Source: Candidatus Krumholzibacteriia bacterium
GTDB taxonomy: Bacteria; Krumholzibacteriota; Krumholzibacteriia; WVZY01
DNA length: 64,000 bases
Direction: 5' to 3'
NCBI GenBank assembly: GCA_046754105.1
Contig: JBHHVD010000003.1
Location: forward strand, 2,707 to 66,706
The notes below the pieces were generated by a model that saw only the letters and a list, made by a program, of their open reading frames with translations, was not told the DNA's origin and did no database searches. Shown here in pieces: positions 51,659 through 64,000 of this stretch. Numbering within the stretch: position 1 is the first letter of the stretch; each line of letters starts with the position of its first letter. The translations under genes and the position numbers were made by a program.

Positions 51659-51955
51659 ACGGACATCAGCCAACGTCTGATTGACCTGCCCCGTTTCATG
51701 TTGTAAACTAAACCATCACGGTTTCGGCGATGCGTGTCGCCGTTACCGGTTGTTGGCCTGCCCGTAATGATTCTGCATGACTGATACTGTTACTGTACGT
51801 CCCCGGTTCGCCTGGTCCGCGGTTTGGCGTCGCGAATAGAGTGGCTCCGGCGGGCGCCTCGATAGAGGAGGACGGTTATGGGTAGCCTCGACACGTACTT
51901 GCGATGTCCGACATATCAATCACGGCCCGCCCGCCGGGGGTCTCTTTCCCGGTCG

Positions 51956-53476
51956 ATGTTCTGGCAGTCTATTTCTCTGATCGCGATGGTGGTGCTGCTT
52001 TGCCAGTGTGGCGGTGACGACCCGCCGGTCGGCCCCGCGGGACAAGAGCAGATCGTGTTGTCGAAGGCGACCGTCGACTTCGCCACGTCGCACAGTGCCG
52101 GAGACCCCGCACCGCAAACGGTGACCGTTTCGAACGGGGCTTCGGGAAGCCTCACCGGACTCGCCGCGACGGTGACGTACGGCGGCGTTGGCGGATGGTT
52201 GACGGCGACCTTTGACCGTACAACAGCGCCGGCGGAGCTAACGCTCCAGGCGCAGGTTGCGAGCACCCCGAACGGGAGCCACACCGCCACCGTGTCGATA
52301 TCATCAGGGGTGGCAGCGAACAGCCCACAGGCGGTCAGCGTGACCTGTTTCATCGCCGCGGATTCGCCGCGCATCGTGCTGTCCACTCAACAAGTCATAT
52401 TCAACGCACCCGTTGGCGGACCGGATCCCCTCGCACAAACGCTCGATGTAACGAATGGCGGAGACCTGCCACTCGGGGGGCTTGCCGTGCATGTGGAGTA
52501 CGGGGGGCTGGGTGGATGGTTGTCCGCCGCGTTGCATTCAACCACCGCCCCGGCAACCATTACGCTACAGGCGACGGCGGGCACACTCCCGGCAGGTGTC
52601 CATTCCGCATTCGTTATTGTGTCTTCACCGGACGCGCCGAACGCGATTGCTACCGCATCGTTCAACGTCGGGCAAGGGTCGGGTCCCCTGATCGCACTGT
52701 CATTGACGGAAACGACGATCGTCGGGAGGATGGGGAACCCGGATCCGCCGCCGTGGTGGGTGACGGTGATGAATAGCGGTACGGGAAGTGTGACGGAATT
52801 GAGTACGAGTATCGCCTACGACCCCGGTCAACCGACCGGCTGGTTGACCGCGACGTTCGAACCGGGGACGACCGCTCCTACAAACCTGAAATTGCAGGGG
52901 TCCCTGGCAGGTCTGAGCTCGGGGCAGTATGGTGCCACGGTATCCGTGTCCTCTCCCGTGGCGGACAACAGCCCCCAGGATGTAGGTGTGACGTTCGAGG
53001 TCCTCGATCCGCCGAGGCGCATCACGCTCACGAATCAGATGTCGCAGAGCCTCAGCATTCACGACGTCGTGCAATTCAAGGTCGCACAACCGGAAGCCGG
53101 TCTTTACGTGCTAAGCGACTCGCTGACCGACGACCCCGCGCGGTGCCTGGCCGCACCCGGAGAGAGCATCTTTCCCGGTGATTCCAGAACGTTTCGCATC
53201 CCGTTCCGGGGCACTTACCATGTGTTTATCGGGATCGGCGCGTGGAACCACGATCCGGTCGGTTGCACACCCCCGAACCTGTGGTTCAAGAGGCGATATT
53301 TCACAACGCCCGGACCGAAGGACTGGTTTGTATGGGCCGTGGTGCCGGTGACCACCCACGTCGGCGAGTGGAACTGGATGATCTCGGGCTCGTACGAGGA
53401 TGGCTCGCTGGTTGTAACCCCGGACGGCGGTACGCCGATCACCTTCAACGTCGGCGAGGTGGACCCGATTCCTTAG
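51956..53476 (+). CDS. Lipoprotein with four tandem ~90-aa Ig-like/BACON-like repeats and a distinct C-terminal domain
   Basis: Start at MFWQSISLIAMVVLLCQCGG (lipobox). The repeat pattern Q.V.V.N.G.G.L.GL...V.YGG.GGWL.A......TAPA..TLQA......G.H.A.V.VSS..A.NSPQ.V.V.F occurs four times. Confidence 0.55.
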   Translation: MFWQSISLIAMVVLLCQCGGDDPPVGPAGQEQIVLSKATVDFATSHSAGDPAPQTVTVSNGASGSLTGLAATVTYGGVGGWLTATFDRTTAPAELTLQAQVASTPNGSHTATVSISSGVAANSPQAVSVTCFIAADSPRIVLSTQQVIFNAPVGGPDPLAQTLDVTNGGDLPLGGLAVHVEYGGLGGWLSAALHSTTAPATITLQATAGTLPAGVHSAFVIVSSPDAPNAIATASFNVGQGSGPLIALSLTETTIVGRMGNPDPPPWWVTVMNSGTGSVTELSTSIAYDPGQPTGWLTATFEPGTTAPTNLKLQGSLAGLSSGQYGATVSVSSPVADNSPQDVGVTFEVLDPPRRITLTNQMSQSLSIHDVVQFKVAQPEAGLYVLSDSLTDDPARCLAAPGESIFPGDSRTFRIPFRGTYHVFIGIGAWNHDPVGCTPPNLWFKRRYFTTPGPKDWFVWAVVPVTTHVGEWNWMISGSYEDGSLVVTPDGGTPITFNVGEVDPIP

Positions 53477-53491
53477 CCGTGGGAAATGTTT

Positions 53492-54388
53492 TCACCGCAG
53501 GCACCAGTGGCGGACTCCCTGGGTCTCCAGGAACTCCTCGGCGCCCTCCCCGTGCAGCATGGCGAGTGTGGCCAGCAGTCCCGCCTCCGTGCAGCATTCC
53601 GCGGCCACCGTTACAGAGCGCGGGGCTCTTATCACCGGCCAACCCGTTCGCGGATCGAGTACGTGCGAGTAGCGCACACCGTCTTTCAAGATGAAACGTG
53701 CCGCATCCCCGCTCGTCGCCACGCCCCCGCGCCGAAGCTCGAGGATGCCCGTTGCGTCCAGCGGCACATTGGGGTTTTCGATGCCGACCTGCCAGGGCTT
53801 GCCGTTTGGGCGCAGGCCGCTCACAAACAGGTCGCCCCCGAAGTTCACGAGCGTGCTCGACGCCGTCTCCGCCCTCAGCAGGCCCGCCACGCGGTCGACG
53901 GCGTATTCCTTGCCGATGCCGCCGAGGTCGATTTCCATCCCCGCGGGCAGCTCGAACCACGGCCTCGTCCAGCGGCTCTTCTCCCAACCGACGAATCGGA
54001 GCTGCTTTTTGACCTTTGCCTTCGAGGGCACGCGGTCACTACCGTCGAACTTCCACACGTTCCTCAGCACGCCGGAGGTGACGTCGAATCGGCCGTCGCT
54101 CAGGTCGTAGCACTTCTGCGCGAAATCGAGAAGGCCGGCGAGCTCATCATCTACGCGCACCGGCCTGCCGACTGCATTGTTTATCTTGTAGATGATGTTG
54201 TCGTCGCGGTAGCGGCTGAACTTTCGCTCGATGCGGAAGGCTTCCGGCGCCGCGATATCCAGCAGGCGCCGGGCCTCTTGCCGGTCCGGCACGGCCATGA
54301 GCACTTCGCAGGGGCTGGCCATGGCCATAAAGGTGCCGGACCAGTGGTCCCCCTTTTGCTCGAGACACGTGTCACCGGCCGCGGACAT
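53492..54388 (-). CDS. apbE: FAD:protein FMN transferase (ApbE family)
   Basis: Motifs FMAMASPCEVL, SEISRINN-like (SRYRDDNIIYKIN) and LGGIGKEYAVD, with a C-terminal Mg/FAD-binding region. Confidence 0.9.
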   Translation of the reverse strand: MSAAGDTCLEQKGDHWSGTFMAMASPCEVLMAVPDRQEARRLLDIAAPEAFRIERKFSRYRDDNIIYKINNAVGRPVRVDDELAGLLDFAQKCYDLSDGRFDVTSGVLRNVWKFDGSDRVPSKAKVKKQLRFVGWEKSRWTRPWFELPAGMEIDLGGIGKEYAVDRVAGLLRAETASSTLVNFGGDLFVSGLRPNGKPWQVGIENPNVPLDATGILELRRGGVATSGDAARFILKDGVRYSHVLDPRTGWPVIRAPRSVTVAAECCTEAGLLATLAMLHGEGAEEFLETQGVRHWCLR

Positions 54389-54397
54389 GGGCTGGAC

Positions 54398-55663
54398 TTA
54401 CCAGGTGAACGAATAACTGACTTGAGTGATAAGGGCGTTCAACGACGGGTACAGATCCTGGCCCCGCTGCAGACCGATGGCGTCGGGTGGGCTGCTGTCG
54501 CCGATTTGCAGGTAGTACTCCCCACGGAAGCCGATCTTGTGCCCGTTCGCCAGCGTACGCGTGTACTTCACACCGGTCGTCCACGCGTCGAACTCGCCGA
54601 GCCGCGGATCGGCGCTGGCGAAGGCCGGCGTCGCCGCTCCCTGAACGAGACTGTGGCGGTAGAAATCCGCCGCGGACTGGTGGTAGTACCGAACGTGAGG
54701 AATGAGGTAGTTGCCCGGCCCGAGCTGCCAGGCGTAGTGGGTCTCCACGGTGTGCGAACGAACTCCCCAGTCGTCCCACAGATACCGATAGGAGAGATCC
54801 ACGATGTCGCGTGTTAGATGATGCTTCGCCTTGCCGTAGAGACTTTGTTTGGTGCGCGAATCCGGGCGCCGTTCGTAGACGTAATCCACCGTGGCGCCGG
54901 GGTTCGGCCCGGCGGCCCCGTCCACCACGCTCAGGAGTTTGAACGGATCGGTATGATAGCCGTCGGATTCCGTGAGCGAGTAGTTGATCTGCGCGAGCGT
55001 GGAGGGACTGACTATCTGGGTCAGGCCGAGCAGTACGTCGACCGTCGTCCGGCTCTTCGTCCCCGTCTCTCTGGGCTGCGCCGTCCCCGCCGGCTGCATC
55101 GAAGCGAAGGGTATCGGCGGGCCGCCCTCGGGGTCTATCTCGTCGTCGGATGCCGACACGCCGACGGAGAGCGTGCGGTTCCGTTTGCTGAAATCCCGCG
55201 TTACCGTGGCAGTGGCGCCGATGGACCGGTAATCGAATTCGTTCGAGCCCGTTACGCCCACGGAGACTCTGGACAGGCGCCCGAGCGGCAGTTCGACACT
55301 GGCGTCGGCCTCCACGCGGGAATCCTTGAATGTATCATCCAGCGGGTCTTCGCCGGGCTGAATCGTATAAGACCCGATGCCGGAAGGGCGGGTAAGTGTC
55401 TGTACGGCGTCGGTCCGCGTGGCACCACTCGGAGAGGCGCCGCTCAGCGCATCGTAGACGAGCTGCAGGTTGAAGAACTTGCCCTCGCCGATCGCGGTAC
55501 GTGCGTTGACCCGGGACTCGAGCGCGGTCACGCGATCGGATTCCGTATAGAAAAGCGCCGCGGTATCGATTTCGATGGGTGGAATCGCCTGCGCGTTCAC
55601 CCCGATCGCCGTACACGCGGCCGCCAGCGCGCTGCGAATGAACTTCGGGTCTCTGGCTTTCAT
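54398..55663 (-). CDS. DUF3570 domain outer-membrane beta-barrel protein
   Basis: 421 aa with a signal peptide and alternating beta-strand pattern. The C-terminus ends ...VSYSFTW (aromatic OMP terminus). Canonical neighbours DUF4266, ApbE and TlpA are present. Confidence 0.65.
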   Translation of the reverse strand: MKARDPKFIRSALAAACTAIGVNAQAIPPIEIDTAALFYTESDRVTALESRVNARTAIGEGKFFNLQLVYDALSGASPSGATRTDAVQTLTRPSGIGSYTIQPGEDPLDDTFKDSRVEADASVELPLGRLSRVSVGVTGSNEFDYRSIGATATVTRDFSKRNRTLSVGVSASDDEIDPEGGPPIPFASMQPAGTAQPRETGTKSRTTVDVLLGLTQIVSPSTLAQINYSLTESDGYHTDPFKLLSVVDGAAGPNPGATVDYVYERRPDSRTKQSLYGKAKHHLTRDIVDLSYRYLWDDWGVRSHTVETHYAWQLGPGNYLIPHVRYYHQSAADFYRHSLVQGAATPAFASADPRLGEFDAWTTGVKYTRTLANGHKIGFRGEYYLQIGDSSPPDAIGLQRGQDLYPSLNALITQVSYSFTW

Positions 55664-55771
55664 TTATCCGGGCCTCCGCCGGTCGGCCGGCCAAGCAGGT
55701 CATCAAATGTACTTGCTCGTTAATACTATCAATGAGGAGAGTTTCAAAGCCCTGAGCGTCGCGTGCGCGGC

Positions 55772-56017
55772 CTAGTTGCATCCACAACCGCCACCACCGA
55801 ACCCCGCGCCACCGCTCGAAGCTTCCTTGCTGAAGTAGATGTGCGCGTCGAAGGCAGAATCCAGCGGATCGGGGTCCAACTGCATCTGCTGTTTCGCCAG
55901 GAGATCGCGCTGCCACGGCTGCGCGCCCAGTGTCGAGCATCCCGTGACGGCGAAAAGAAAGAGCACCAGTATCGATGATTTAATCGTCGTCTTCCACCGC
56001 GGTCTGATTCGACCCAT
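55772..56017 (-). CDS. DUF4266 domain lipoprotein
   Basis: About 81 aa. Lipobox LFLFAVTGCS, conserved PWQRDLLAKQQMQLDPDPL, and a C-terminal GGAGFGGGGCGCN tail. Confidence 0.6.
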   Translation of the reverse strand: MGRIRPRWKTTIKSSILVLFLFAVTGCSTLGAQPWQRDLLAKQQMQLDPDPLDSAFDAHIYFSKEASSGGAGFGGGGCGCN

Positions 56018-56504
56018 TCTCGCTCGCCTCCCCGTGCAACAAGGCCTCGATGTCGGCTTCCATACCGGCCGATTCTTTCTCCACAAAACCCAGATGGTCG
56101 CTCACCAGGTGTCCCTCCCGGTCGTAGAGGAACGAACTTGGCATTGCTTCCAGTTCATACTTCTGCGCCAATTGGCCCTTCGTGTCATACACGACTTGAA
56201 ATCTGGCAGGCCGTTTCTTCAGAAACGCCTGCGCTGCGTTACGGTCGCGATCCACGTTCACGGCGATGATAACGAGTCCCTCGGCACTGTATTTTTCGTG
56301 CATCTCGTTCATCCACGGGAACGATTTCCGGCAGGGACCGCACCAGGAGGCCCAAAAATCCACCAGCACGACGGAACCCCGGTGGGACTCGAGGTGGAGA
56401 TCGTTACCAGGAACCACATCGGCGTGAACGGGCAAGACACTATGCCCGGCGGGCAGCAGCGCGACGATGAGCGCGAAGGACAATAAGCGTTGCACGGATG
56501 TCAT
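55980..56504 (-). CDS. TlpA-family thiol-disulfide oxidoreductase (thioredoxin fold)
   Basis: WCGPC active site. Start at MTSVQRLLSFALIVALLPAGHS with GGAGG 7 nt upstream. Confidence 0.8.
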   Translation of the reverse strand: MTSVQRLLSFALIVALLPAGHSVLPVHADVVPGNDLHLESHRGSVVLVDFWASWCGPCRKSFPWMNEMHEKYSAEGLVIIAVNVDRDRNAAQAFLKKRPARFQVVYDTKGQLAQKYELEAMPSSFLYDREGHLVSDHLGFVEKESAGMEADIEALLHGEASENGSNQTAVEDDD

Positions 56505-56997
56505 GATTTTCCTCCACGGAATGAGGCTGTGCCATAAAGCAAAGAAGCATTGACCCCCATCGGTCGTCCGAGCGTGGCAGCCATTACACCGAGCGCGAAC
56601 GTTTCGGCAAAGTTTTCCGATAGCCAAGGGCCTCTTGCCGGGCAAAACTGCTGTAAAGATACTAATCGCAAGAATTTTCCGCAACCTCTAATAATAGCGT
56701 ATGCCGTGTTACGCGCCGGCGTCACCAGGGGCGCAGTACAACGGGCCGCGGTAGACGAACACCCGATCGACTCCCGATCCGAGCGTGTCGGCGGGATGTG
56801 CGGCGCACTCGGTTGAAAGGTTTTGAAGGCCACTCCGACTATACGCTCGTGCCTTGCCGGCAGGAGCCGGTAGAACCCATCGCGAGCCTTTGGCATTGAT
56901 TCGGCTAGCGAAAAGATGTATAAAATGACGTCACTCATTTGCAAGGCCGCTCTCTCGAGCGAGCGCTAACCTGAATTTTACCCAGGATGTACAGACC

Positions 56998-58275
56998 ATG
57001 TTGAGGAGTATCCGGACAGGCGTGGCCCTTGCCGTCATACTGACGGCGCAGCCGCTTGTTTTCTCTCGGCCGCTCGCCGTTGCCCAGGGAACGGCACCGC
57101 GCCGCGCCGACCTTCTCCGGGACGAACGAAGGGCGAAGGCGGCTGCGGTTAGAGAACCAGAGAGAGCGACCACAGAGAAGCTCATCATCGGTTTGAACAA
57201 CGTCGTGGGTTTCGCTGGCAAACTACGGGGTGGCCTGGCGGGTTTCCATTTCGCCACCGGAGATTTCCCTTCCGGAGCGGGGTTTGCCTACGGCCTGGGC
57301 TTCACCGACCTGGCGGTCGGTTCGCTGTACGAAGACGCGGACCTCAGCAACCGCCTCGACGTCGACGCGCAGGTCGCATTCAGCACCGCCAGTTATTTCC
57401 GCGGGCGGACGGAGGTGGCGTTGCGAAACATCCGCGGCGCACCGTTCCACGTGTCTCTAATGGGCCAGTACTACGAATACGCCGAGGAGGACTTCTTCGG
57501 ATTTGGCCTCGATGCGACTCGGGAGAGCGACCGTACGAGTTATCGGCTAGACGCCTGGGAAGTCGGCGGCGATTTCCAGTGGGAACCGGAGAGCTGGCTC
57601 CACTTCGGCGGGGGCGCCGCCTTTTTGAGCCCGCGCGTTCGCAGCGGAGAGGATGATTTATATCCATCGACGGAGGAGGTGTTCGCTCCCGCCACCCTTC
57701 CCGGCTTCAGCGCGGAGCCCGACTTCGTCCGCATAGACGGCTGGCTGCGGGTCGATCGCCGCGACAACCCCTCGTACACCCGGGCCGGCAGCTTCGCCGG
57801 TGCGAAGGTATCGGTTTACGAGGACCGGGACCTTGGGGCTTTCGACTTTCGCCGTTTCGAGTTCGAGGCCCAGCAGTATATTCCGTGGTTGCAAGAACAC
57901 CGCGTCCTGGCCCTGCGAGCGAATGCCGTGATTACCGACACCAACTCGGGTAGCGACGTGCCGTTCTACTTCATGCCGACACTGGGCGGGTCCAGCGTGC
58001 TTCGCGGATTTCGCGAGTCCCGCTTCCGCGAGCGGAACAGCATCCTCTTCGGCGCCGAATACCGCTGGGAGGCCTGGTGGGCGCTGGATATGGCCCTGTT
58101 TGTCGATTCCGGCAAGGTCGCCTCCGACAAGAGCGACCTGGACTTCGATAACCTCCAAAACTCCTGGGGCCTCGGATTTCGCTTTCATAAATTTGATGCT
58201 TTCGTTCTGCGGCTCGATCTGGCCATCAGCCGTGAAGGATTCATTCCATTCCTGAGGTACAAAAGTGCTTTCTGA
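56998..58275 (+). CDS. Omp85-family (bacterial surface antigen / BamA-TamA-like) outer-membrane beta-barrel protein, short form
   Basis: 425 aa with a signal peptide. The C-terminal region YFMPTLGGSSVLRGFRESRF...ILFGAEYRWE...LFVDSGKV...WGLGFRF...LRLDLAI matches Bac_surface_Ag. Terminal aromatic F. Confidence 0.6.
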   Translation: MLRSIRTGVALAVILTAQPLVFSRPLAVAQGTAPRRADLLRDERRAKAAAVREPERATTEKLIIGLNNVVGFAGKLRGGLAGFHFATGDFPSGAGFAYGLGFTDLAVGSLYEDADLSNRLDVDAQVAFSTASYFRGRTEVALRNIRGAPFHVSLMGQYYEYAEEDFFGFGLDATRESDRTSYRLDAWEVGGDFQWEPESWLHFGGGAAFLSPRVRSGEDDLYPSTEEVFAPATLPGFSAEPDFVRIDGWLRVDRRDNPSYTRAGSFAGAKVSVYEDRDLGAFDFRRFEFEAQQYIPWLQEHRVLALRANAVITDTNSGSDVPFYFMPTLGGSSVLRGFRESRFRERNSILFGAEYRWEAWWALDMALFVDSGKVASDKSDLDFDNLQNSWGLGFRFHKFDAFVLRLDLAISREGFIPFLRYKSAF

Positions 58276-60037
58276 CCGGTCGTCCCACGCTCTGCGCCAA
58301 CCGGGTATTCGCGCGATCGTGCTTGCTGTCGTTTTGCTCCTGCCCGTGTCGTTTGCCGGCGAACGATCGGAAGCGCTTGCCCAGCACGTCAACAAGGCCG
58401 GCGACGGCACGGCAAGGCGTTTTTATCCGGATGATCCTCTTTGGGTGGATACGGACACGTGCGACATTCCGCCACCGGCCACGTTCGAGCTGCACAAGAG
58501 TTACGATTACTTCCAGAACACGTTTCGCACTCCGGGTTCTCCCCACGGCCCGTCACTCAACGTCAACACGCTCGACGAGGTGCCGAATTCCAGTTGGTTT
58601 ACGAACCGTCTCGGGCAGCATGACATGACCATCGAGGAATTGCTGCGCGGCCCCGACGTCGTAGACGGGCCGGCGCCCGGCACGTGGACGGTGACCGGCA
58701 GGCCGTGGTCGGGCATCACCCCGAAGTTCACGATTCGAGACAGCCGGGGGGATACCTACCTCATCAAGCTCGATCCGTTGGATCTGTGGGAGCTGCCGTC
58801 TTCGGTCGAAATGATCTCCACCAAGATCTTCCACGCCCTCGGCTACAACGTGCCTTCCGACTACCTCGTCAACGTCGACCGCTCGCTGCTCGAGATCGAA
58901 CCGGGGGCTACCTACCGGGCCTCGGGCGGCAAGAAGCCCATCAAGCCGGCCGATCTGGATCACTGGTTACGGCGGCAAGTCAGAAACCCGGATGGCACCA
59001 TCCGGGCGTTGGCCAGCAAGTACATTCCGGGCCGCCCGGTTGGCGAGTTCAAGTATTACGGGGTTCGCTCGGACGATCCGAACGACATCTTTCCGCACGA
59101 CCGGCGCAGGGAGCTGCGCGGACTGCGTGTATTCGCCGCGTGGCTCAACCATGACGACTCGCGCGCGCTGAACACCTTCGACACCTACGTGGAGGAAAAC
59201 GGCAGCCGGTTCATTCGGCACTACCTGCTCGACTTCGGCTCGAACATGGGAAGCGGGAGCACCTCGGCCCAGCAGCCCCGGGCCGGCAACGAATACTATT
59301 TCGAGAAGACGAAGATCGTTAAGGGGATCTTCTCGCTCGGACTGTGGTCCCGCGACTGGATGCACGTGAAGTATCCCGGTTACCCCGCCGTGGGCAACTT
59401 CGAAGGCGATTTCTTCGAGCCCGCGAAGTGGAAGCCGCAGTACCCGCACCCAGCGTTCAGTCGTATGGATGCCGCCGACGCGTTCTGGGCGGCCCGCATC
59501 CTCTCCCGCCTCACAGACGACATGATCCGCGCCGTGGTGAAGGTCGGGCACATAAGCGACCCGGAGGCGGAAAGCTACCTGACCGAGGTCATCCTGAAGC
59601 GGAAGCACAAGTGCGTAAACTACTGGATCACCCGCACCAGCCCTCTTGATAACTTCGCGGTCGGCCGGGCGGCAGGCGGCGGCACCAAGCTGACCTTCGA
59701 CAACGCGGCGGTCCGTGTGGGGGCTGCCCGTCCCGGTGCGCGATACAGCGTGCAATGGTCCGCGCTCGACAACCTCGCCAATAAGGAGCAGCCGGTGGGA
59801 GCCGTGGTCACGCTCGACGGGCCGGCGGCGTTCGTCCCGGATGCGGCGTGGGGCCCCGTGGACGATGCCGGCGACCGGTACGCCGTGGCCGCTGTCGATG
59901 CAATCCATCCCGACTTCACGCACTGGCAGAGACCGGTGCACGTGACTCTCCGGGAGCGCTCCGGCCAACTAGCGGTAGTGGGTATCGTGAGGCCACGCGA
60001 GGACCCGGGGGAAAGCGCGCCGGCGGGAGTTCAGTAG
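58265..60037 (+). CDS. Secreted hypothetical protein with atypical protein-kinase-like core motifs
   Basis: Signal peptide IRAIVLAVVLLLPVSFAG. YLIKLDP is a beta3-Lys candidate. WLNHDDSRALN resembles the HxDxxxxN catalytic loop (also HipA/PI3-4K-like DDHxxN). LLDFGSNMG is a DFG-like motif about 20 aa further on. Its GTG start overlaps the OMP gene end. Confidence 0.5.
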   Translation: MLSDRSSHALRQPGIRAIVLAVVLLLPVSFAGERSEALAQHVNKAGDGTARRFYPDDPLWVDTDTCDIPPPATFELHKSYDYFQNTFRTPGSPHGPSLNVNTLDEVPNSSWFTNRLGQHDMTIEELLRGPDVVDGPAPGTWTVTGRPWSGITPKFTIRDSRGDTYLIKLDPLDLWELPSSVEMISTKIFHALGYNVPSDYLVNVDRSLLEIEPGATYRASGGKKPIKPADLDHWLRRQVRNPDGTIRALASKYIPGRPVGEFKYYGVRSDDPNDIFPHDRRRELRGLRVFAAWLNHDDSRALNTFDTYVEENGSRFIRHYLLDFGSNMGSGSTSAQQPRAGNEYYFEKTKIVKGIFSLGLWSRDWMHVKYPGYPAVGNFEGDFFEPAKWKPQYPHPAFSRMDAADAFWAARILSRLTDDMIRAVVKVGHISDPEAESYLTEVILKRKHKCVNYWITRTSPLDNFAVGRAAGGGTKLTFDNAAVRVGAARPGARYSVQWSALDNLANKEQPVGAVVTLDGPAAFVPDAAWGPVDDAGDRYAVAAVDAIHPDFTHWQRPVHVTLRERSGQLAVVGIVRPREDPGESAPAGVQ

Positions 60038-61254
60038 GTCTTGGAACCCGTGCGCGGCATCGAGTCCGGGGCCGAAGCGATCTTGAGTTCGCGGCGGATC
60101 GCCGTGGCGAACGCGCGGGCGACCATGCGGTTGCCCTCGGGGTTCAAGTGCACCCAGCTTACGAGGCAGTCTCTTCGCTGGTCCATCGCTCCGATCACGT
60201 CCGCGTACGGTACGCCCCGGGCCGCGGCCCATGCTTCGAGATCGCGCATCAGGACGTTGTGCGTCAGAAAGTAGAGCTCGCGGTTGGTGATGTGCTTGTT
60301 CCGGTCAAGATCCTGGCGAACGAGAATGCTCTCTTCCCCGTAGGTCACCCCTCTTATGTGTTTTCTGTCCACCAGGAACGACTTGGCCTGCTGGCTGGCG
60401 ACGATGAACGTGATGTGCCGCCTCCGGCATTCGAGGTCGATCGTGCCGATGTTCTTCAAGAAATTCTCGCTCCTGCCCCGCATATGCTCCTCGAGGTCGG
60501 TCTCGGTGAACCGGAGCGTGCTGGGCCTTCTCATGAAACGGTCGGCGACGATGACGGTAATGAGATGGTCTCGCAGCCACCGGAAGACTCGGCGCAGCGG
60601 GGAAACCCGGCTGAGCTTCTCTCGCACGACGCTCTTGCCTGCCCGTTCTTTCCTCCACAACACGGGGCCGCTCCAGCTGTCGTTGACCCCCTCGTAGAAC
60701 GTGACGACGTCGGGGTGCAGCGGTAGTGCCTCTGCTTTGAAGAGCGACAGTATCTGTCCCGACTTCAGGTGTGGTATGCCGAAATTGATGACCTCGAACC
60801 GGTCATCCCCCGGGCGTTGGCGATTCAACAATTGTTCGAGGTAGTACGGGTACGTCTCGTCGTCGCGGTCGGAAAAACCGAACGTCGAGGACGCCCCGAG
60901 CGTGACGATGCGGATGACGTGTGGCGCCTTCCGCTTGTCGAAGTCCCGGCCCCGGAACCCGCTGCCGTTGATCGTGGCCCGGATGAGCCTGCCGGATTCG
61001 TGGTCGCGGGTGAACCTTTCCTCGTAGGGATGGTATTTGAAGTAGTTGTCATGGAGGTGCATGTCGCCGCTGTGGGCATCGCCGCTCTTCTGGCGGTTCA
61101 GCCGCGTGCCGTAGAAGAGCATGCTCGAGCCCAGCTGAAAGGCGAAGTAGGTCCTCAACCCCAGCTCGAGCGTGCCGAGGGGGACGGCCACGATGATCGC
61201 CCAGAACAGCAGCTTCTTGTGCCACGGGGGGGCGGTTATTCGCGTGCGGTTCAT
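60031..61254 (-). CDS. SGNH/GDSL-type hydrolase family protein
   Basis: 407 aa. N-terminal TM anchor, block I IVTLGASSTFG (GDS-like Ser) and downstream block GVND(SW). Confidence 0.55.
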   Translation of the reverse strand: MNRTRITAPPWHKKLLFWAIIVAVPLGTLELGLRTYFAFQLGSSMLFYGTRLNRQKSGDAHSGDMHLHDNYFKYHPYEERFTRDHESGRLIRATINGSGFRGRDFDKRKAPHVIRIVTLGASSTFGFSDRDDETYPYYLEQLLNRQRPGDDRFEVINFGIPHLKSGQILSLFKAEALPLHPDVVTFYEGVNDSWSGPVLWRKERAGKSVVREKLSRVSPLRRVFRWLRDHLITVIVADRFMRRPSTLRFTETDLEEHMRGRSENFLKNIGTIDLECRRRHITFIVASQQAKSFLVDRKHIRGVTYGEESILVRQDLDRNKHITNRELYFLTHNVLMRDLEAWAAARGVPYADVIGAMDQRRDCLVSWVHLNPEGNRMVARAFATAIRRELKIASAPDSMPRTGSKTY

Positions 61255-63653: not shown

Positions 63654-64000
63654 TCACTTCAGGATGACCATTTTGCGAGTGCCCGTGCCTCCGACTCCCA
63701 TGAGCCGGTAGAAATAAACGCCGCTCGACACCGAACGACCCGCAGTATCCCGACCGTCCCATTCAGCGCGGTGGGTCCCCGCATCACGCTCCCCCTGGTC
63801 TAGCCGCGTGACCAGCGCTCCCGATGCGTCGAAGATCTCGATCGAGACCATCGCTTTGGCGCTCACCGTGTACTCGATCGTCGTCTGCGGGTTGAACGGA
63901 TTCGGGAAGTTCTGGGATAGCGCCGCCGCCAGTCGGGAAACCGTCACGGTTGCCACGGGAGACCGGAACTCGTCTCCACTCGCAGTGCGAATCACAAGCT
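63654..64000 (-). CDS. C-terminal part of a secreted protein ending in a T9SS type-A sorting domain (partial, continues beyond window)
   Basis: FPNPFNPQTTIEYTV...IEIFDASGALVTRL...WDGRDTAGRSVSSGVYFYRL matches Por_Secre_tail. The listed M start is internal; the frame stays open to the window end. Confidence 0.6.
   Translation of the reverse strand, partial: LVIRTASGDEFRSPVATVTVSRLAAALSQNFPNPFNPQTTIEYTVSAKAMVSIEIFDASGALVTRLDQGERDAGTHRAEWDGRDTAGRSVSSGVYFYRLMGVGGTGTRKMVILK

Follow-up and report, generated by a model that had tools for sequence, protein, structure and literature searches.

What is the joint task of an outer-membrane barrel and an exported kinase-like protein whose genes overlap end to start? 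The question is raised by a stretch of 64,000 nucleotides (the window; contig JBHHVD010000003.1, positions 2,707 to 66,706) from a metagenome-assembled genome (MAG) of Candidatus Krumholzibacteriia. On the plus strand of the window lie ORF1 (56998..58275; ATG start, 425 residues), the gene for an Omp85-family outer-membrane barrel of the POTRA-less or "noNterm" type, and ORF2 (58265..60037; GTG start, 590 residues), the gene for an exported protein-kinase-like (PKL) protein. The original prediction, made from the sequence alone, had placed a 425-residue Omp85-type protein ahead of a 590-residue protein with a signal peptide, and both are there: the coordinates of ORF1 and its Pfam match (PF01103) agree with that description, and ORF2 begins with a Sec-type N-terminus. 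The balance of evidence tips, by a modest amount, toward the view that ORF1 and ORF2 form an undescribed two-gene envelope module, consisting of an exported nucleotide-dependent transferase and its own outer-membrane partner.

The kinase-like character of ORF2 emerges first from its predicted structure. The AlphaFold2 model, calculated with 114 sequences as input (pLDDT 87.5, pTM 0.88), comprises a signal peptide and linker (residues 1–47), a conserved N-terminal extension or "wrap" that is mainly coil (residues 48–140; 58406..58684; pLDDT 85–97), a kinase-like core (residues 141–455; 58685..59629) delimited by secondary structure, Foldseek and hhalign, and an all-β C-terminal domain resembling an Ig/FN3 sandwich (residues 460–576; 59642..59992; pLDDT 96–98). 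Within the core an α/β N-lobe and an αC-like helix are succeeded by the catalytic loop, the DFG segment, a flexible activation-like segment and a helical C-lobe. Foldseek comparison with the PDB yields matches that are weak, though kinase folds dominate them, as the original prediction would have it. The best kinase, and the second match overall, is CtkA (3akk; probability 1.00, E 1.7e-3, TM-score 0.51 by target); others are Fam20C, Rio2, alpha-kinase, HipA, PI4KIIα, AmiN, IRE1 and PINK1. The matches outside the kinases are mainly of FN3 type, from monobody and cytokine receptors, and fall on the C-terminal domain.

Three motifs had first suggested a kinase, and all three are present with the spacing claimed for them: the lysine on β3, the aspartate and asparagine in the catalytic loop, and the DFG triplet after a second strand, as judged from the model and from hhalign. 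YLIKLD (residues 165–170; 58757..58774) occupies strand 164–169 and contains the β3 lysine, K168, followed by D170. The αC acid, E182, lies in helix 177–192. WLNHDDSRALN (residues 293–303; 59141..59173) forms the catalytic loop directly after an αE-like helix (residues 282–294), and LLDFGS (residues 321–326; 59225..59242), with the DFG-type metal-binding aspartate D323, comes after strand 314–321. In the model two strands separate the catalytic loop from DFG (residues 323–325), and a low-confidence loop then leads to G341-x-E343.

Conservation was assessed in a diverse set of 54 family representatives at 31–54% identity. K168 is found in 45 of them and D170 in 50, and position 182 is Glu or Asp in 42. 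In the catalytic loop H296 is kept in 36, D298 in 47, Arg or Lys at position 300 in 43 and N303 in 48; in the DFG segment the counts are 52 for D323, 44 for F324 and 39 for G325. The four residues singled out beforehand as catalytic (K168, D298, N303 and D323) are thus retained in 83–96% of the set. The family pattern of the loop, H296-x-D298-x-[RK]300-x-x-N303, is that of eukaryotic protein kinases and their Hanks-like relatives. The alternative description of the loop as a HipA-like DDHxxN motif does not survive this comparison; D297 occurs in only 8 of the 54.

An unsupervised hhalign comparison of the ORF2 core with 13 Hanks kinases taken from the related loci gave a marginal score (E 0.02) over 215 co-linear columns, in a register that pairs K168 with the VAIK lysine, the catalytic loop with HRDxKPxN, and D323 with DFG. 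Motifs that persist at such low identity and fall on the expected elements of a confident model would hardly arise by chance. By predicted fold and motifs, and not by any existing sequence model, ORF2 is a member of the PKL superfamily, and as read from the alignment and the model it retains all of the residues for nucleotide-dependent phosphoryl transfer (K168, E182, D298, R300, N303 and D323).

The original prediction had left the choice between an exported atypical kinase and a pseudokinase. Export and kinase-like character stand; with all catalytic residues conserved, the pseudokinase half is improbable. In a fuller alternative ORF2 would have no catalytic role and would act as a scaffold, perhaps an accessory subunit with which the barrel assembles or holds a particular component of the outer membrane. 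Kinase folds are often re-used as scaffolds, K168 is missing in 9 of the 54 representatives and H296 in 18, and little ATP is expected beyond the cytoplasm. The retention of D298, N303 and D323 in 87–96% of the representatives, together with the αC acid and the basic residue at position 300, is nevertheless typical of active enzymes, and only a slight probability is assigned to the scaffold.

A second alternative would make ORF2 an exported toxin kinase of HipA type that serves as an antibacterial effector. HipA and CtkA are among the structural matches, and the only Pfam families touched, HipA_2 (8 of 54 representatives, best E 0.0017) and HipA_C (5 of 54), belong to the kinase clan. These matches cover the N-lobe alone and are all below threshold, at 11–14 bits against cut-offs of 27–30.5 (E 0.002–0.2), and the family profile, compared by hhalign with E. 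coli HipA as a single sequence, gave no significant match. In the HipA/CtkA branch, to which the best solved kinase match belongs, the parallel extends to export, for CtkA has been reported to be secreted. ORF2 differs from that branch in its H-x-D-x-[RK]-x-x-N loop, its Sec signal, its wrap, its β-sandwich and the lack of an antitoxin partner; the conserved neighbours include neither a HipB-like antitoxin nor an immunity gene. Close relatives of ORF2 are about 60% identical across orders, a degree of constraint that fits housekeeping rather than an arms race. Since thresholds, motif and gene context all fail, ORF2 was rejected as a HipA-family member, and a role as a HipA-type toxin is most improbable.

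The most conserved part of the family lies just before and into the αE-like helix. It is the motif R268-x-D-D271-P-N-D274-x-x-P-H278-x-x-R-R282-E-L-R285-G (59066..59122), as defined in the diverse alignment, in which D271, D274, H278, R282 and R285 are invariant in all 54 representatives; it may be a site for substrate or metal. The wrap has conserved features of its own, DDP at residues 56–58 and VPxSSWFTNR at 106–115, with R115 invariant in the diverse alignment and S109, W111 and N114 at least 90% conserved.

Export seems to be general in this family. The N-terminus of ORF2 combines a positively charged n-region (R5, R11, R16) with AIVLAVVLLLPVSFA as its hydrophobic core and with the sequence ALA/Q at residues 37–40, so that the signal peptide read from these letters covers residues 1–39 (58265..58381), with Q40 invariant among 30 close homologues. 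The signal is predicted to be of Sec type and not that of a lipoprotein, because there is no Cys at the signal site. All 54 diverse members have an N-terminal signal sequence, with a lipobox in about 15–20 of them (roughly one-third), and the family appears from its sequences to be exclusively extracytoplasmic. It is also large: homologues with E <= 1e-3 form over 7800 clusters when grouped at 90% identity, the top 120 all being 57–67% identical to ORF2, and 3318 clusters at 50% identity, 933 of them with E below 1e-30. The database name is "hypothetical protein" throughout. Neither Pfam nor NCBIfam contains a model that ORF2 matches above threshold; sequence and profile searches of the PDB with ORF2 and with two family alignments (A2, A3) found nothing relevant, and a Pfam search of eight longer family members (606–1158 residues) for informative fusions found none. 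The C-terminal sandwich does not match the Pfam sorting domains of type IX secretion.

ORF1 is a barrel with very little attached to it. It matches Pfam Omp85 (PF01103) over residues 250–410 with 59.1 bits (cut-off 24; E 6.8e-16), its NCBIfam matches are confined to Omp85/BamA/TamA models and are all sub-threshold, and its GenBank label is "BamA/TamA family outer membrane protein". The AlphaFold2 model, calculated with 73 homologues as input (pLDDT 83.1; below 50 at residues 1–4 and 17–32), and its DSSP assignment contain a signal peptide, helices at residues 36–50 and 58–77, and 16 strands over residues 83–423. The signal peptide, as read from the sequence, covers approximately residues 1–30 with cleavage at AVA/QG (56998..57087). 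The periplasmic region that follows (57103..57228) consists of the two helices, which are everything that occupies the place of POTRA domains in the model; within it R36 and R44 are invariant among the 73 homologues and L40, P54, R56 and E60 nearly so. The barrel itself (residues 83–425; 57244..58272) ends in the aromatic C-terminus RYKSAF. Foldseek places BamA and TamA barrels at the top (E 2e-11 for BamA 4k3c), with TM-scores by target of 0.75–0.80 against barrel-only TamA structures (0.80 for 8us4). Both motifs expected of such barrels are conserved in the 73 homologues: the loop-6 lid-lock motif LRGF, as defined in PMC11358297 (residues 335–338; 58000..58011; R336 and G337 invariant, L335 and F338 at least 90% conserved), and the strand-13 motif FVDSG, of the form FxDxG (residues 368–372; 58099..58113; F368 and G372 invariant, D370 at least 90% conserved).

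A TpsB-like POTRA domain appears neither in the model nor in searches against the Pfam POTRA families. Because no such family matches and only two helices precede the barrel, ORF1 is assigned by sequence and model to the noNterm subclass of the Omp85 superfamily, as a BamA/TamA-type and not a TpsB-type protein.

The two genes are joined at a junction (58254..58275) that has the marks of translational coupling. A Shine–Dalgarno sequence, GAGG (58254–58257), precedes the GTG start of ORF2 (58265–58267), which lies 8 nucleotides ahead of the ORF1 stop codon TGA (58273–58275). The overlap is therefore 11 nucleotides (58265–58275), and the 4-nucleotide GTGA overlap described earlier is an error. 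An identical 11-nucleotide overlap, with an ATG start, occurs in nine related genomes (L003, L005–L008, L011, L013, L016 and L018, in the locus numbering used here), and seven of the nine also have GAGG, in the common sequence "...ctGAGGttcgaacATGnnnttcTAA". In more distant clades the two genes overlap by 4 nucleotides or 1. GenBank starts ORF2 at V19, giving 572 residues; the recurrence of the 11-nucleotide overlap and of GAGG in the relatives supports the start at 58265 in preference. Translation of the two genes is almost certainly coupled, to judge from this arrangement. A scan for promoters and terminators performed no better than on shuffled sequence, and searching by exact match for the product in GenBank (P0001) returned no record.

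The two genes travel together across phyla. A census of 80 species-representative genomes with a relative of ORF2 at 33–65% identity found a barrel gene beside that relative in 74 loci, upstream and on the same strand in every paired locus but L046, where it lies downstream. The pairing with an Omp85 gene proposed from the single locus is a recurrent one. Four of the six unpaired loci end at a contig edge (L020, L058, L060 and L066). The other two, L012 and L077, have no adjacent barrel match at the threshold of the census, and for L077 a separate scan gave a weak upstream match. The hosts are soil and sediment bacteria, mainly Acidobacteriota, with others in Gemmatimonadota, KSB1, Eiseniibacteriota and Myxococcota; one is a cultured species, Paludibaculum fermentans (orthologue WP_194447229.1). 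The pair is present in two divergent copies in some genomes (L009 with L069 and L003 with L006 are examples).

Variants of the arrangement were also seen. Tandem duplication has placed two Omp85 genes before one kinase-like gene in L028 (2497–5022) and L119, and one Omp85 gene before two kinase-like genes in L034 (4301–7536) and L112. Long open reading frames that might be taken for fusions, in L077 (1007 residues) and in L062 and L074 (818 residues each), appear to be artefacts of choosing the longest frame: in L077 the Omp85 and kinase-like matches lie in different reading frames, and in L062 and L074 the 818-residue frame overlaps a separately detected barrel gene, a call made there without a frame check. 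The kinase-like gene is further present in MAGs assigned to a Haloarculaceae archaeon (L033), to Bifidobacteriaceae (L058, L078) and to a cyanobacterium (L016, L035), with an Omp85 gene adjoining it in L033, L078, L016 and L035. Mis-binning of contigs, and not a real host, probably accounts for at least the archaeal and Bifidobacteriaceae assignments.

A strict order of barrel followed by cargo, with coupled translation, invites the idea of a minimal two-partner type of secretion, in which the POTRA-less barrel would move the kinase-like protein, or its lipoprotein forms, to the surface or into the medium to act on external or surface targets. The Sec signal of ORF2 is consistent with such a route, as are the lipoproteins that make up about one-third of the family and are possibly displayed on the surface, and the N-terminal helices of ORF1 sit where FhaC has its plug helix. 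Secreted kinases do exist, CtkA, CotH and Fam20C among them. Comparison with the type Vb systems (FhaC/FHA, ShlB/ShlA) finds the same adjacency of a barrel gene and a gene for a Sec-exported partner, and in both cases the barrel has an N-terminal helical element. There the resemblance stops. ORF1 lacks the POTRA domains that TpsB proteins use in cargo recognition and is structurally closer to the BamA/TamA insertases than to FhaC, and ORF2, a globular protein with a compact fold of some 550 residues, has neither a TPS domain nor a β-helix. ORF1 moreover keeps its barrel-closing lid-lock motifs, and the closing dome of such barrels has been counted against a role in transport (PMC11358297). Membership in type Vb was rejected on the POTRA and TPS domains; the adjacent, coupled genes are a feature shared with such systems. 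Surface delivery by the barrel is accordingly a doubtful reading, albeit one that retains a substantial minority share of the probability.

Under the favoured reading, that of an envelope transferase with its own barrel, ORF2 would act at the outer membrane once exported by the Sec pathway. The barrel could provide a docking site on the periplasmic face or a conduit to the cell surface, and a lipid, glycan or protein of the envelope would receive from ORF2 a phosphate or some other group derived from the nucleotide. A source of nucleotide is suggested by the wider neighbourhood, for 38 of the 80 census loci contain additional recurrent genes. Homologues of the NTT/TLC ATP/ADP transporters (PF03219, 36–64 bits; cut-off 21) lie within 6 kb in 21 loci. 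PAP2 phosphatases that bear signal peptides occur in 17 loci and exported metallophosphoesterases in 10; a secreted protein of about 280 residues with DxDRNxxN...IDF motifs and weak matches to PI3_PI4_kinase and HipA_2 is found in 11. The NTT loci span classes of Acidobacteriota as well as Gemmatimonadota and KSB1 (examples are L082:12015-14618(+), L042:7483-8859(+), L061:8464-11238(+) and L039:6098-9256(-)). The transporters occur as short forms, NTT-HEAT fusions and NTT-HEAT-cNMP fusions, often with a metallophosphoesterase alongside. In L082, whose kinase-like protein is 61% identical to ORF2, the order is Omp85, kinase-like gene, NTT-HEAT, metallophosphoesterase; L018 (54% identity) also has an NTT nearby, and the NTT link thus extends to the subfamily of the window. 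The arrangement varies from locus to locus, upstream or downstream and on either strand, and it does so across phyla, a variety that favours a functional link over inherited synteny as the sole cause. A reverse search was made with 80 metagenome loci (L083–L162) seeded with short NTT: the kinase-like gene is present in 28 of them, and in 11 of the 17 in which both flanks are at least 3 kb.

As part of the favoured reading, the NTT/TLC homologues would supply nucleotide across the inner membrane in the many lineages that have them, and the exported PAP2 and metallophosphoesterase enzymes encoded nearby would undo the transfer or recycle the phosphoester. A broader model would have many diderm soil bacteria carry out ATP-dependent phosphorylation outside the cytoplasm: an NTT/TLC-type carrier would swap ATP out into the periplasm for ADP; the kinase, held or displayed by the POTRA-less barrel, would mark an outer-membrane lipid, glycan or protein; and PAP2 and metallophosphoesterase would undo the mark. 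This broader model is a tentative one, rather unlikely to be correct in all of its parts. Several observations weigh against the favoured reading. The window contains the two-gene core alone, with no NTT, PAP2 or metallophosphoesterase gene and no gene for the 280-residue protein. The same bare pair, free of NTT, PAP2 and metallophosphoesterase, is found in most of the closest relatives (L001–L017, L163–L165), and for both reasons the ATP-supply part of this reading is borrowed from other lineages. In a few family members K168 or D298 is substituted, and these proteins may lack activity. The periplasm is generally held to be without ATP, and porins would leak ATP out. The NTTs characterised so far are importers or exchangers that mostly import nucleotides (PMC5381601).

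The same neighbours can be read in the opposite direction, as a system for scavenging nucleotides or organophosphates. ORF2 would then bind or process nucleotides at the outer membrane, the exported phosphoesterases would process external nucleotides and NTT/TLC would import them, with no envelope substrate phosphorylated. The co-location of NTT/TLC, metallophosphoesterase and PAP2 genes with the pair fits this proposal, as do the soil and sediment habitats of the hosts and the importer or exchanger activity of characterised NTTs (PMC5381601). On the other hand, a mere binding protein needs no conserved full set of K168, D298, N303 and D323, and the two-gene core usually occurs without any scavenging gene. 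Nor is any Omp85 barrel known to act as a solute channel. Scavenging is considered improbable.

Three further observations concern the neighbourhood. In a distant subclade (33–38% identity) the gene next after the kinase-like one encodes an exported PAP2, and the gene for the 280-residue secreted protein comes after that, as in L059 (7527–8363(+), 8385–9239(+)), L052, L062, L068, L071, L072, L074, L076, L078 and L079; the PAP2 proteins of this subclade have an unusually short spacing between KxxxxxxRP and PSGH. The secreted protein has no Pfam model, bears RDTDRNxGNVLI...MIDF motifs in addition to its weak PI3_PI4_kinase and HipA_2 matches, and looks from these motifs like a second exported kinase-like family. 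An hhalign comparison of the ORF2 family with this small family (A5) was not significant, the best local stretch being the catalytic loop and DFG. About 29 loci have genes for Hanks-type Ser/Thr kinases close to the pair; these were judged uninformative, the phyla concerned being rich in them and the cluster heterogeneous. A 742-residue neighbour in L163 was considered as an NTT and ruled out.

Both superfamilies in the pair are well studied, and their combination is absent from the literature searched. Neither Pfam nor NCBIfam models the ORF2 family, despite its thousands of members. An active ORF2 would represent a widespread bacterial kinase family found only outside the cytoplasm, and would challenge the view of an ATP-free periplasm. 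The repeated linkage to NTT suggests a concrete candidate route by which ATP could arrive, and it is an initial clue to what the NTTs of free-living bacteria do. A fixed partner for a POTRA-less Omp85 protein could help to tell a translocator from a docking platform. Should extracytoplasmic phosphorylation prove correct, it would give a function to noNterm Omp85 proteins, free-living NTTs and an unnamed kinase family together. Paludibaculum fermentans is a cultured host in which these matters could be studied.

Other genes surround the pair in the window. A minus-strand cluster of four genes (53492–56684) is divergent from ORF1 and is not conserved beside the pair; it encodes a thioredoxin/redoxin-like protein (55980–56684), a DUF4266 lipoprotein with the C-terminus GGGCGCN (55772–56086), a DUF3570 protein (54398–55663) and an ApbE flavin transferase (53492–54388). 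On the other side a membrane-anchored GDSL/SGNH hydrolase gene (60031–61254, minus strand) is convergent with ORF2, the 3′ ends overlapping by 7 nucleotides. The hydrolase, the thioredoxin-like gene and the DUF3570 gene are not conserved next to the pair in related loci. Farther upstream on the plus strand lies a gene for a 532-residue exported protein (51878–53476) with repeated Ig-like modules of "choice-of-anchor D" type (NCBIfam E 7.5e-06, below cut-off; no Pfam match). An open reading frame at the window edge (63654–63995, minus strand) contains FlgD_ig and a Por_Secre_tail/CHU_C C-terminal sorting domain, and because of this sorting domain type IX secretion is probably present in the organism.

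How, then, does the pair compare with known systems? The noNterm Omp85 class itself has been described, with its function left open (Heinz & Lithgow 2014, PMC4104836; Leptospira LIC12252/12254/12258, PMC11358297). ORF1 shares with it the 16-stranded barrel, the loop-6 (L/V)RG(F/Y) and strand-13 FxDxG motifs and the lack of POTRA domains. It differs from the leptospiral and Cytophagales group in having no match to DUF5982, the marker of that group, and from the class in general in its two N-terminal helices and its fixed, coupled partner gene, the latter unreported in PMC11358297. The nearest folds to ORF1 are found in systems, TamA–TamB and BamA with its lipoproteins, in which a barrel of this type likewise has a dedicated partner, periplasmic or a lipoprotein, encoded nearby. 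TamA and BamA have three to five POTRA domains, however, and they work with an AsmA-like lipid-transfer protein or with the Bam lipoproteins rather than with an enzyme of kinase fold.

A literature search found no paper that describes the Omp85/kinase-like pair. The SEAE1 family, PIK-like and encoded beside a PAP2 gene, is according to its description cytoplasmic and has other spacing, and the remaining new PKL families of the same 2026 preprint are also different and cytoplasmic (bioRxiv 10.64898/2026.09.18.752743); ORF2 is set apart from SEAE1 by the published description. NTT-HEAT proteins of free-living bacteria are known, again with function left open, and the NTT-HEAT(-cNBD) fusions described there resemble the neighbours in related loci that reach the TLC threshold, among them fusions with HEAT and cNMP-binding domains (PMC5381601). 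That report makes no mention of a kinase-like or Omp85 neighbour, and the present window has no NTT.

The secretory-pathway kinases Fam20C and CotH provide a precedent for a kinase fold at work outside the cytosol, and Fam20C aligns with ORF2 over about 450–490 columns in Foldseek. The likeness is one of analogy: the TM-scores are 0.22–0.33, the sequences are unrelated, and ORF2 is set in the envelope of a bacterium and paired with an Omp85 protein. The luminal ATP on which the secretory-pathway kinases draw is supplied by a membrane ATP/ADP exchanger, and this arrangement offers a conceptual parallel to the NTT homologues that accompany the pair in other lineages.

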